Source of the DNA: Chloroflexota bacterium
GTDB lineage: Bacteria; Chloroflexota; Dehalococcoidia; JACPPT01
Direction of reading: 5' to 3'
NCBI GenBank assembly: GCA_016190815.1
Contig: JACPPT010000006.1
Span: 2,723-66,722 of the forward strand
DNA: 64,000 nucleotides
Part shown: positions 37,375 to 44,727 of the stretch, one piece after another
How positions within the stretch are numbered: position 1 is the stretch's first letter
How the letters are laid out: the number at the start of each line of letters is the position of its first letter
Notes under the pieces: model-generated
Databases searched by the model: none
What the model was told of the DNA's origin: nothing
The model's input: only the letters and a program-made list of their open reading frames with translations
Made by a program: the position numbers and the translations under genes

Positions 37375-39237
37375 ATGTTCGTTATAGGCACAGCAGGACA
37401 CGTAGACCACGGCAAATCAGCTCTGGTCAAGGCCTTAACAGGAATTGACCCCGACAGGCTCGCTGAGGAAAAGGAGCGGGGCATGACCATTGACCTGGGC
37501 TTTGCCTGGCTTACCCTCCCCAGCAAAAGACAGGTCAGCATCGTAGATGTCCCTGGGCATGAGCGTTTCATCAGGAATATGCTTGCCGGCGCCGGAGGGG
37601 TGGACTTAGCCCTATTCGTGGTGGCAGCCGATGAAGGGGTTATGCCACAGACAAAAGAGCACCTGTCCATTCTCGACATTCTGCACGTGAAGGGAGGGAT
37701 TGTCGCTCTCACAAAAAAGGACCTTGTAGACAATGATTGGCTCTCCTTGGTGACATCAGACGTAAAAGCCCTCCTTGAAGGAACTACTCTTGAGAAGGCT
37801 CCCATTGTGCCCGTTTCCTCCGTTACAGGAGAGGGCCTCGCTCAGCTTCTGGAAGTCATCGATGGAGAGCTGGATTCCACACAGCCCAGGCATGATTTAG
37901 GCAGACCTCGTCTACCCATAGACCGGGTCTTCACCCTGGCAGGTTTCGGAACGGTTGTTACAGGCACTCTTGTGGACGGTCACCTTTCCCTGGGGCAAGA
38001 GGTAGAGATAGTACCCCAGGGAATACGCTCACGGATAAGGGGGCTGCAAACCCACAGACAAAAAATTGGAGAGGCCGTGCCTGGCTCCAGGGTTGCGGCA
38101 AACATTGCGGGCGTAGCACCCGAGGAAATCCAGAGGGGCAACATCCTGACCCTGCCTGGTCTGCTCAAGCCCACCATTGCTATAGACGTTGTGCTCAGGC
38201 TTATCAAGGACTCCCCTTCAACTCTAAGTCACAACGCCATGGTCACCTTCCACGCAGGCACACAGGAGACCCCTGCCAGAATACGCCTTCTGGACAGAGG
38301 TGAGCTTGGCCCCGGAGAAAGCGCCTGGGCCCAGATACGCACGGAGCAGCCCGTCTGCGTTGTCAAGGGGGACTTTTTTGTCATCCGCTCGACCAAAGGA
38401 ACCATCGGCGGGGGTGAGGTGGTGGAGACCCATGCAAAGCGCCACAAACGCTTTCATGCTCAAACCCTGGAGCGCCTCGCGGTGCTAGAGAAGGGCACCC
38501 CGGAGGAGATTCTTCTGAAAGCCCTGGAGACCTCTGAACCCTGCGAAATGAATGCCCTTGTAAAAAGAGTCACCTTCCCCGAAGGAGAGATACGCTCAAT
38601 AGTGGTTGACCTGGCCTCCAAAGGCTCCGTCATCCCGCTGGGTGGAAAGACCCTGGAAAGAGGCACGCTACTTTACTCTTTCAGGGGATGGACAAGACTG
38701 GTGGAAAAAGCCTGTTCCGCACTGGAAAGCTACCACCTCCAGCACCCATTAAGGCGAGGTGCACCCAAAGAAGAGCTGAGGAGCCGGCTGGGCCTCCACC
38801 CTCAGACTTTCAGTCTGGTTGTCCAGCGCATGGGTGAAAAAGGGATACTCGCTGAGGAGGGAGCTACAGTTCGTCTCCCCTCTCATGAAATCAAGCTAAG
38901 CAGGGAACAACAGAAGGCCGTGGAGGAGTTTATACACGCACTGGAGAAAAATCCTTACTCGCCCCCCACAGACATACCCCTGGACCCGGAGCTTTTGAGC
39001 CTCCTCGTAGACCAGCGGAGAGTGGTTAAGGTTGGTGATGATGTGGTGTTCTCCGCAGGAGCTTACGATAAAATGGTGAAGCTCGTTGTGGAGCATATAA
39101 GAGCCAAAGGGAAAATCACTGTCGCTGAGGTGCGCGACCTCCTAGGGACAAGCCGAAAATACGCTCTGGCCTTGATGGAGCACCTGGACCAGCAAAGAAT
39201 AACCCGAAGGGTCGGGGATGAAAGGGTGCTGAGATGA
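37375..39237 (+). CDS. selB: Selenocysteine-specific translation elongation factor
   Basis: GTPase G-domain (GHVDHGKS, DVPGHE, TKKD) plus winged-helix C-terminal domains. The start was chosen at MFVIGTAGH. Confidence 0.9.
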   Translation: MFVIGTAGHVDHGKSALVKALTGIDPDRLAEEKERGMTIDLGFAWLTLPSKRQVSIVDVPGHERFIRNMLAGAGGVDLALFVVAADEGVMPQTKEHLSILDILHVKGGIVALTKKDLVDNDWLSLVTSDVKALLEGTTLEKAPIVPVSSVTGEGLAQLLEVIDGELDSTQPRHDLGRPRLPIDRVFTLAGFGTVVTGTLVDGHLSLGQEVEIVPQGIRSRIRGLQTHRQKIGEAVPGSRVAANIAGVAPEEIQRGNILTLPGLLKPTIAIDVVLRLIKDSPSTLSHNAMVTFHAGTQETPARIRLLDRGELGPGESAWAQIRTEQPVCVVKGDFFVIRSTKGTIGGGEVVETHAKRHKRFHAQTLERLAVLEKGTPEEILLKALETSEPCEMNALVKRVTFPEGEIRSIVVDLASKGSVIPLGGKTLERGTLLYSFRGWTRLVEKACSALESYHLQHPLRRGAPKEELRSRLGLHPQTFSLVVQRMGEKGILAEEGATVRLPSHEIKLSREQQKAVEEFIHALEKNPYSPPTDIPLDPELLSLLVDQRRVVKVGDDVVFSAGAYDKMVKLVVEHIRAKGKITVAEVRDLLGTSRKYALALMEHLDQQRITRRVGDERVLR

Positions 39238-43105: not shown

Positions 43106-44727
43106 GCGAGGAAATACTGAACGCTTATGAGCAGGGCAAGCGCCTTGGCATTGTAGTCGAAGGCTCCCTCTCTCAAGGCGTTGAAGTAAAGCTGGACCCC
43201 GAGATCTCCGTGGAGGATATGGCGGTTGGAAGGTATGTAACAATAGACGGGAAGAATCGGCGGTTCTTCGGTATACTAACTGACGTTTCTCTCGGTGCCA
43301 TTGACAGGAGTCTTTCCATCACACCACCGGATGTCTCCGACCCATTTATAGCCAAGGTGGTCTCCGGCACAAGCGTCTATGGGAAGCTACACGTTCTCCC
43401 TATGCTTGCCGTTGCGGGCATTCTGGGCATAGATGAAAAACCTCAGCCCGCCAAGACGGTTCCACCTCACTTCTCCACAGTGCGCACCGCCTCAGACGAG
43501 GACATCGCATTGATCTTTGGGCGTGAGGATGAACACCACTTCTATGTGGGCAACCCTCTGGACATGGAGACCAAGGTGTGCCTGAATCTGGCAGAATTAG
43601 TAAAGCGCTCCAACGGCGTCTTCGGCAAGAGCGGCACAGGCAAGACCTTCCTCACCCGCATCCTTCTCGTAGGAATGCTCCAGAAGAACGCGGCAACCAA
43701 CCTCATCTTCGATATGCACAACGAATACGGATGGGAGGGCACAAAGGAAGGTGGAGGCAAGGTCAAGGGCCTGAAGCAGCATTTCTCCTCCCAGGTAGCT
43801 GTGTTCACCCTAGACGAAGAAAGCTCCCGGCGCAGAGGAGTCAGCACAGACTTTGTGGTGGAGATAGGCTACGACGAGATTGAGCCTGAAGATATAGAGA
43901 TTCTCAGGGACACCCTGAAGCTCACGGAGAGGGCAGCACAGGCGGCATACAGGTTTCGCAGGAGGCTGGGAGGTAGCTGGCTTGAGAAGTTTGTGAATGA
44001 AGAGTCCAGAGACGAAATAAACGCCTTAGCTAAAGAGTGGGACGAGCACGAGGCGACCATCGCTAACCTGCACCGCGGGCTGGAGGGTTTGATGAGGCTC
44101 CCCTTCTTCAAGCCCAAAGCCCGCGAGGACTCGGTGAGGAGAATACTGGAATACCTGGACAGGGGCCTGAACGTGGTCCTGGAGTTTGGGCGCTACGGGG
44201 ACAACATAGCCGCCTATGTGCTTGTGGCAAACCTCCTGAGCCGGCGCATCCATCAGAGGTACCGAGAACGTACCGAGCGCTCCCTGGGAGAAGGCGCTCA
44301 GAAGCCTCATCCCCTGGTCATCACCATTGAGGAGGCACACAAGTTCCTCAACCCCGCGGTGGCCAGTCAGACAATCTTCGGGACCATCGCCAGGGAGATG
44401 CGAAAATACAACGTAACCCTTCTAATAATAGACCAGCGCCCCAGCGGCATAGACGAGGAGGTAATGTCTCAGCTTGGTACCAAAATCACCTGCCTTCTGG
44501 AGAACGAGAAGGACATCGATGCTGTTCTCGCTGGGGTTTCGGGGCGGAGCGAGCTGCGCTCAGTCCTGGCAAAGCTTGAGCCGCAGCAGCAGGCCCTCAT
44601 ATTCGGCCATGCCGTCCCCATGCCCGTGGTTATAAGAACCAGAGAATACGGCTCGGCGGAGTCATATAGAGAGTTAGGCCGAGGGGAGAAGAGGGGCGTC
44701 ACAAAAGACAAAGACCTCTGGGAATAG
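43102..44727 (+). CDS. herA: HerA-family (FtsK/HerA superfamily, DUF87) hexameric ATPase/helicase
   Basis: N-terminal HAS-barrel-like region. Walker A GKSGTGKT, Walker B VITIEEAH and IIDQRP block. 541 aa. Confidence 0.8.
   Translation: MSEEILNAYEQGKRLGIVVEGSLSQGVEVKLDPEISVEDMAVGRYVTIDGKNRRFFGILTDVSLGAIDRSLSITPPDVSDPFIAKVVSGTSVYGKLHVLPMLAVAGILGIDEKPQPAKTVPPHFSTVRTASDEDIALIFGREDEHHFYVGNPLDMETKVCLNLAELVKRSNGVFGKSGTGKTFLTRILLVGMLQKNAATNLIFDMHNEYGWEGTKEGGGKVKGLKQHFSSQVAVFTLDEESSRRRGVSTDFVVEIGYDEIEPEDIEILRDTLKLTERAAQAAYRFRRRLGGSWLEKFVNEESRDEINALAKEWDEHEATIANLHRGLEGLMRLPFFKPKAREDSVRRILEYLDRGLNVVLEFGRYGDNIAAYVLVANLLSRRIHQRYRERTERSLGEGAQKPHPLVITIEEAHKFLNPAVASQTIFGTIAREMRKYNVTLLIIDQRPSGIDEEVMSQLGTKITCLLENEKDIDAVLAGVSGRSELRSVLAKLEPQQQALIFGHAVPMPVVIRTREYGSAESYRELGRGEKRGVTKDKDLWE

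Follow-up and report, generated by a model that had tools for sequence, protein, structure and literature searches.

Five consecutive genes on the + strand of a Chloroflexota contig, namely selB, a gene for a membrane-anchored sensor, nurA, an uncharacterised gene that we call Y, and herA, were analysed within a stretch of 64,000 nucleotides (nt) of JACPPT010000006.1 (GCA_016190815.1). This whole stretch is hereafter called the window, and all coordinates refer to it. We propose, with a probability of roughly 0.68, that nurA, Y and herA form a vertically inherited module for the processing of DNA ends in Chloroflexota, mainly in Dehalococcoidia, and that the adjoining sensor is not part of it. 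HerA-NurA has so far been treated as a two-protein machine, described among bacteria as restricted to a few lineages such as Deinococcus-Thermus. According to our analysis a distinct clade of NurA-HerA is present throughout a bacterial class that is abundant in the environment. New here are an unannotated, conserved gene that is translationally coupled to herA and whose predicted product resembles a HerA N-terminus without the motor, and a conserved four-cysteine cluster, a probable metal site, in the NurA of this clade.

NurA, HerA and the conserved protein Y

The nuclease had been assigned to the NurA family in an earlier reading of the sequence without database searches (the sequence-only reading), and this assignment stands. 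The PF09376 model matches with an E value of 6.8e-27 (95 bits versus a cutoff of 21) over its whole length (profile positions 2–254 of 254). The start of the protein, MSLDL, is conserved among homologues, and D86-G87-S88, D93-R94, D181-G182 and E359/H361/E362 are invariant in 18 sequences. The conserved acidic catalytic residues of the family, with D-G-S as motif I and D, E or H residues further on, are thus present. The invariant D/E/H residues are presumed to be equivalent to the archaeal catalytic residues. No match for NurA was found by sequence in PDB at E<=0.01. A cluster of four cysteines is located within the protein: C246, C258 and C268 occur in all 18 sequences, and C254 in 16 of them. 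The two sequences lacking C254 have gained a CxxC at C258, the pattern expected of a maintained four-ligand metal site, and the cluster is therefore a probable metal site, binding either zinc or iron-sulfur. We know of no four-cysteine metal site in archaeal NurA. A further cysteine, C100 (41552-41554), was noted beside the cluster. In a distant Chloroflexota locus (L088; related loci are designated here by L numbers) nurA is called as two open reading frames of 312 and 123 residues (6681-7990), through either a frameshift or pseudogenisation, and Y and herA are intact there.

The ATPase had been recognised as HerA from its HAS-barrel and its Walker A and B motifs, in agreement with the profile searches. 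DUF87 (PF01935) is found at E 3.1e-30 (106 bits versus a cutoff of 23.2), and the N-terminal HAS-barrel (PF09378, residues 16-68) passes its threshold marginally (26.0 versus 25.2 bits) and with partial coverage of the profile. The Walker A sequence GKSGTGKT (43624-43647) and the Walker B sequence ITIEEAH (44320-44340) are invariant in 21 homologues. With the invariant residues of NurA, this indicates that the motifs needed for a translocase-nuclease mechanism have been kept. The closest sequence match in PDB is HerA of a SIR2-HerA system (8wiv, E 1.5e-19), followed by the Sulfolobus (4d2i, E 5.3e-18) and Thermococcus (9x1l, E 4.1e-16) proteins. HerA of Deinococcus (drHerA) is not matched by sequence at E<=1e-3, and HerA of the window thus belongs to a separate clade.

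The middle gene, Y, had been singled out in the sequence-only reading as an extra component. It is a real gene, undescribed in known HerA-NurA or HerA defence systems, and it turns out to be the best-conserved partner of HerA. A word-indexed search returned 566 homologues, typically of about 194 residues and covering 99% of the frame from 42524; the exhaustive search gave 755 clusters at 50% identity (E<=1e-3), and a genome scan located Y in 220 GTDB species. Every named source, including one of a distant branch, is a member of Chloroflexota, mostly of Dehalococcoidia. No Pfam model reaches its cutoff with Y (the HAS-barrel model gives 17.2 bits versus 25.2, E 0.0055), no NCBIfam model matches, and comparison of the Y profile with PDB by sequence returned nothing. 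Among 25 sequences, 50 columns are invariant and the mean column identity is 70%.

The AlphaFold2 model of Y has a mean predicted local distance difference test (pLDDT) of 80.9 and a predicted template modelling score (pTM) of 0.77. It comprises an N-terminal β-barrel (residues 1-117), a low-confidence Arg-rich loop and a C-terminal domain of five helices. Since the barrel shows the HAS-barrel fold in this model, Y is predicted to be a separate protein with a HAS-barrel like that of HerA and no ATPase core. The Arg-rich loop reads S-I-D/E-P-x-R-R-P-I-A-R-G across the family (also given as S-I-E-P-G-R-R-P-I-A-R-G). S52, P55, R57, P59, A61 and G63 are invariant in the 25 sequences, and residues 55-64 have a pLDDT <50 and are predicted to be disordered.

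The association of these genes was examined by comparing six window proteins with 83 related loci by tblastn; counts of species loci refer to the 80 loci returned of the 220 species with Y. Y is present in 80 of these 80 loci. It adjoins herA in 78 of them, the other two being truncated by the end of the contig, and a 4-nt overlap of the Y stop with the herA start is seen in 54 of the 78. A nurA gene is found upstream on the same strand in 46 of the 50 loci with enough upstream sequence, including the most divergent branches. Identities to the window proteins are 50–61% for Y, 58–71% for HerA, 42–58% for NurA and 55–60% for the neighbouring selB. When the loci that keep selB are considered separately, the values are 55–60% for SelB, 42–52% for NurA, 54–56% for Y and 62–68% for HerA. 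The identity of Y is comparable with that of SelB, and the module thus diverges in step with a housekeeping gene.

The genes surrounding the module in the window belong to the core chromosome. They include those for complex I (nuo), succinate dehydrogenase/fumarate reductase, NAD kinase, holA, ychF, hemW and secDF, and further the CCA-adding enzyme, def, priA, rplS, trmD, rsmH, ftsZ and ribonucleotide reductase. No match for Y was found among 72,556 plasmid and 50,697 phage records. This context, together with the absence of Y from these collections and the divergence in step with selB, argues for vertical inheritance and for a cellular function rather than for a mobile defence island.

The sensor gene and the selB neighbourhood

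The sensor contains GAF_2 (residues 181-312), PAS_9 (339-439) and HD_5 (493-655, E 1.6e-24) domains. Its C-terminal domain aligns across the whole HD-GYP fold of V-cGAP3 (PDB 5z7c, E 5e-23), in which LHDIGK corresponds to LHALGL and HHEKLDGTGYP to VETYDGRGLP of the sensor. The suspicion that this domain is degenerate was correct: the fold is present, and the metal ligands and other residues of an active phosphodiesterase are replaced (HD by HA, HHE by VET, GYP by GLP). With respect to HD-GYP phosphodiesterases (V-cGAP3, 5z7c; PA4781, 4r8z), with which it shares the whole fold, the sensor has replacements of the HD Asp, the Lys, the two HHE histidines and the GYP tyrosine. It resembles the degenerate, regulatory copies of the domain and not the active enzymes.

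The sequence-only reading had considered this protein as a functional part of the module, by which the nuclease-translocase would be gated by a stimulus or by a cyclic-dinucleotide second messenger. We consider this improbable. The sensor gene is closely joined to its neighbours: the ATGA at 41255 combines its stop with the start of nurA, and its own start adjoins the selB stop or overlaps it. It is probably co-transcribed. Its guanine-plus-cytosine content is like that of the adjoining genes, three independent assemblies show the same arrangement, and a nucleotide receptor is a conceivable role for a degenerate HD-GYP domain. However, the three assemblies are all of one species and constitute one observation, and the HD Asp and HHE His ligands are lost. 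No sensor homologue adjoins the module in any of the 80 species loci by tblastn; the sole match in related loci, in L004, is 28% identical and lies about 5 kilobases (kb) upstream of nurA. A search of 5.8 billion proteins gave a single close relative, P0270, which is 100% identical. It comes from two short contigs whose DNA is identical to the window over the region compared, and thus from the same species. No orthologue was found outside this species in that collection, the next-best homologues being 22–30% identical multi-domain proteins of other architectures. Moreover, selB abuts nurA directly in two relatives (L022 and L035), where the two genes share 4 nt at their stop/start junction. 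Since the sensor has no orthologue beyond the species and is absent from related loci, it is, judging from these comparisons, a recent species-specific insertion into an older selB-nurA junction and not a component of the machine. Of the two genes proposed to accompany HerA, the middle gene was thus found in all 80 species loci and the HD-GYP sensor in none. This result removes a tempting but unsupported story of a nuclease gated by a second messenger.

The identity of selB is clear from TIGR00475 (E 4.3e-107, 359 bits versus a cutoff of 242; NCBIfam) and from its GTP_EFTU, SelB-wing_2 and SelB-wing_3 domains (Pfam), which place it within the SelB family. The ATG at 37375, chosen in the sequence-only reading, is preceded by GAGGT 5 nt upstream. 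Its transcription together with a nuclease had been viewed as odd, but the linkage is not peculiar to the window and is a conserved gene order in part of the phylum. nurA is immediately preceded by selB in eight loci (L015, L022, L032, L035, L039, L044, L057 and L087). In L087 the order ychF-hemW-selB-nurA-Y is kept although Y is only 35% identical to that of the window, which identifies the selB linkage as an old gene order. selB is therefore an ancestral neighbour, conserved upstream of the nuclease genes, and does not belong to the module functionally. The conserved neighbourhood spans 34162-39237 in the window and 2452-6767 in L087, where it consists of ychF, a hemW-like radical SAM gene, selB and nurA.

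Proposed function of the module and relation to known HerA systems

In Sulfolobus and Deinococcus, the HerA hexamer translocates double-stranded DNA through its central channel. One mouth of this channel consists of the ring of HAS-barrels, onto which a NurA dimer docks; the docked dimer cuts the strands to generate a 3' tail (PMC9960219). By analogy with these systems, the HerA hexamer of the window would pump double-stranded DNA through its channel and a NurA dimer docked on the HAS-barrel face would cut the strands. Y could be a stoichiometric accessory subunit, made together with HerA by means of the stop/start overlap. Its HerA-like barrel would attach to, or lengthen, the face formed by the HAS-barrels of HerA, the side on which NurA docks and DNA exits, and its invariant Arg-rich loop may contact DNA or a partner. 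Y may thereby adapt or regulate the NurA-HerA assembly. That Y is a physical subunit of the HerA ring is a tentative proposal, to which we give somewhat less than even odds. If it is such a subunit, it would offer a handle on how the docking of NurA and the passage of DNA are controlled at the HAS-barrel face, and a family of more than 500 "hypothetical proteins" would gain a name and a context. A more ambitious version, in which Y is an obligatory third subunit controlling NurA docking or DNA exit and in which, in this species, the dead HD-GYP domain of the sensor is a cyclic-nucleotide receptor gating the machine, appears very improbable; if true, it would mean a three-component resection machine unknown in archaea and Deinococcus.

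The nearest described bacterial system is NurA-HerA of Deinococcus radiodurans (7f6d; PMC9960219), also a chromosomal nurA-herA operon without linked Mre11/Rad50 genes. The two systems share a HerA made of a HAS-barrel, a RecA-like core and an inserted helical region, and a NurA with an RNase-H-like nuclease fold docking on the HAS-barrel face. In contrast to the window, the D. radiodurans system has two genes, with no Y-like subunit described. HerA of the window belongs to a separate clade, and its NurA contains the conserved four-cysteine cluster. The archaeal systems (Sulfolobus, 4d2i; Thermococcus, 9x1l) consist of the same two protein families, with sequence matches at the HerA level. However, the archaeal genes form a herA-mre11-rad50-nurA operon. 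In the window, no Mre11, Rad50 or SbcCD domain was found in the 36 open reading frames scanned (about 15.3-63.9 kb), and no such gene is called in L001, L002, L087 or L088. Furthermore, the archaeal machine has no third HAS-barrel protein, and HerA of the window scores far below the cutoff of the NCBIfam archaeal HerA equivalog (90 versus 800). Full-text literature searches, of incomplete coverage, returned no paper that deals with HerA or NurA of Dehalococcoidia, nor one that describes a HAS-barrel partner standing alone.

A HerA hexamer paired with an adjacently encoded effector is also the principle of the anti-phage systems SIR2-HerA (Nezha) and DUF4297-HerA. The module could accordingly be a defence system against phages or plasmids with NurA as effector and Y as adaptor, a role that the sequence-only reading had entertained. 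The closest PDB sequence match of HerA does come from a SIR2-HerA system, PADLOC gives partial HerA matches (best E 5.8e-31), and the NCBIfam HerA_antiphage model is found at E 2.2e-24, although with 86 bits versus a cutoff of 800. In the distant locus L088, a PIN/MazE pair and a DNA methyltransferase are encoded nearby. However, the PADLOC matches of HerA are generic and partial only, and the sensor, NurA and Y are without a PADLOC match. Neither SIR2 nor DUF4297 turned up among the neighbouring genes with Pfam or PADLOC, the effector here being a NurA. The antiphage-HerA scores remain far from their cutoffs (NF042943, 85.9 versus 800 bits; NF042944, 64.4 versus 850 bits), as do those of the archaeal repair HerA models, whose matches are equally strong. 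The anti-phage HerA systems have no counterpart of Y. The housekeeping context, the gene order conserved over deep divergence, the divergence in step with selB and the absence of Y from the plasmid and phage collections do not fit a defence island, and the defence role appears unlikely. Processing of DNA ends by a vertically inherited module accounts better for these data.

Another explanation is that Y and HerA are the true pair, devoted to another task (e.g. another DNA translocation), nurA being a loosely linked neighbour. The Y-herA overlap is far tighter than the nurA-Y linkage, in which gaps reach 4.7 kb, and 4 of the 50 loci show no nurA in the upstream sequence available (3–10 kb depending on the locus). 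In favour of this explanation we also count L087, in which the genes of a transporter lie between Y and herA and nurA adjoins Y. Given the presence of nurA upstream on the same strand in the 46 others, the most divergent branches included, and the fact that HerA-NurA pairing is the rule in archaea and Deinococcus-Thermus (PMC9960219), we regard a nuclease-free pair as doubtful and retain the three-gene module.

That Y is the functionless, decaying remnant of a duplicated herA, and a pseudogene in the window, would agree with its lack of an ATG, GTG or TTG at the conserved N-terminus and with an in-frame TGA just upstream, but is hardly credible in view of its invariant columns, of a frame that is intact in each of the 80 loci that contains it whole (L073 alone runs into the end of its contig), of first codons that differ mostly synonymously from those of a relative, and of a GGAGG ahead of the start.

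Several points weigh against the three-gene module. The physiological role of bacterial NurA-HerA is itself disputed: deletion in Deinococcus lowers resistance to radiation and mitomycin C little or not at all, and in some reports raises it (PMC9960219). That Y binds HerA we infer from gene order alone. The comparison of the Y and HerA profiles with hhalign is not significant (probability 0.6%, E 0.1), and the helical domain of Y, taken alone, matches generic helical repeats only and has no specific structural relative. The gene of the window lacks a canonical start codon at the conserved N-terminus. The distance between nurA and Y ranges from 9 to 4718 nt, with unrelated cargo in between, and in about 10 loci unrelated small genes lie between Y and herA; strict co-transcription of all three genes is thus not required. 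Finally, in this species the overlap of the sensor stop with the nurA start makes a local regulatory link possible.

As the hhalign result is not significant, Y is not presented here as a shortened HerA, and its being a HerA paralogue has no support from sequence. As to its start, the in-frame TGA (42521-42523) is followed by AGC and then by ATA at 42527, with GGAGG located 6 nt upstream of this ATA. The DNA at the N-terminus is identical in the three independent assemblies. In a 79% identical relative (L086), TTG is found at the equivalent position, and the differences between both genes in the first 30 codons are mostly synonymous. These features make ATA 42527 the most likely start of translation. 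The first canonical start is GTG 42617, from which automatic gene callers shorten Y to 162 residues. Reading TGA 42521 as a selenocysteine codon that would extend Y was rejected, as there is no start codon between the nurA stop and this TGA. A hairpin in the nurA-Y spacer was not supported either, the fold energy being no better than that of shuffled sequence (z-score -0.19).

The loci with inserts between Y and herA are L030, L036, L046, L048, L051, L052, L059, L071, L073 and L075, and L087 (8652-13054). An example of cargo at the nurA-Y junction is found in L002 (5726-9410). Such cargo occurs on either strand and includes peptidases, a phosphonate ABC transporter with a LysR regulator, an NfeD-like membrane protein, a GNAT-like protein and a methyltransferase. 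The insertion of the sensor fits this pattern of junctions that repeatedly take in unrelated genes. A gene of about 185 codons between nurA and Y, called gene X, was considered as a fourth component and discarded: it has the HxH…Y motifs of IS200/RAYT-type Y1 transposases and is absent from the window. Gene X is directly upstream of Y in about 16 loci, i.e. L001 (9447-10016), L002 (9471-10016) and about 14 others, among them L004, L005, L008, L011, L013, L014, L016, L018, L019, L023, L028 and L049. In L001 and L002 its end overlaps the start of Y. The copies are 40–76% identical, as divergent as the host genes, and gene X thus appears, from these values, to be stably inherited at this position in a subclade rather than recently transposed.

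Gene layout and neighbouring genes

The features of the region are collected in Table 1. The chain of five genes with ATGA overlaps of stop and start, described in the sequence-only reading, is read directly from the letters at 39234-39237, 41255-41258 and 43102-43105, i.e. at 3 of the 4 junctions; at the remaining one, about 60 nt lie between nurA and Y, and there is no overlap. That such overlaps may be artefacts of start choice applies to selB and the sensor, for which another gene caller picks an ATG at 39270 (662 residues), and the gap to selB is then only 32 nt.

Table 1. Coordinates of the genes and protein features of the selB-sensor-nurA-Y-herA region.
Feature	Position	Strand	Assignment or remark
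selB	37348/37375-39237	+	TIGR00475; GTP_EFTU and SelB winged-helix domains
Sensor, 674 residues, membrane-anchored GAF-PAS with degenerate HD-GYP (HD_5)	39234-41258	+	Pfam
NurA-family nuclease, 403 residues	41255-42466	+	PF09376
Four-Cys cluster within NurA (C246-x7-C254-x3-C258-x9-C268)	41990-42058	+	Probable metal site, from residue conservation
Y, about 193 residues, uncharacterised	42527-43105 (frame open 42524-43105)	+	Probable start ATA 42527
Arg-rich loop of Y	42677-42712	+	Highly conserved, predicted disordered; candidate DNA- or partner-binding loop
HerA-family ATPase/translocase, 541 residues	43102-44727	+	DUF87 and HAS-barrel

Promoter and terminator scans of 37000-46300 gave counts at the level of shuffled sequence, which speaks neither for nor against a single transcript, and Rfam and tRNA scans of the window returned no matches. 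Upstream of the region, two open reading frames of 454 (29094-30458) and 219 residues (30664-31323) have no Pfam match at E<=1e-5. A dehydrogenase of the Glu/Leu/Phe/Val type is encoded on the same strand 59 nt past herA (44787-45851). No tblastn match to it was obtained in any related locus, and it is thus not conserved there; its best NCBIfam match is the tryptophan dehydrogenase ScyB model, with 393 bits versus a cutoff of 600.

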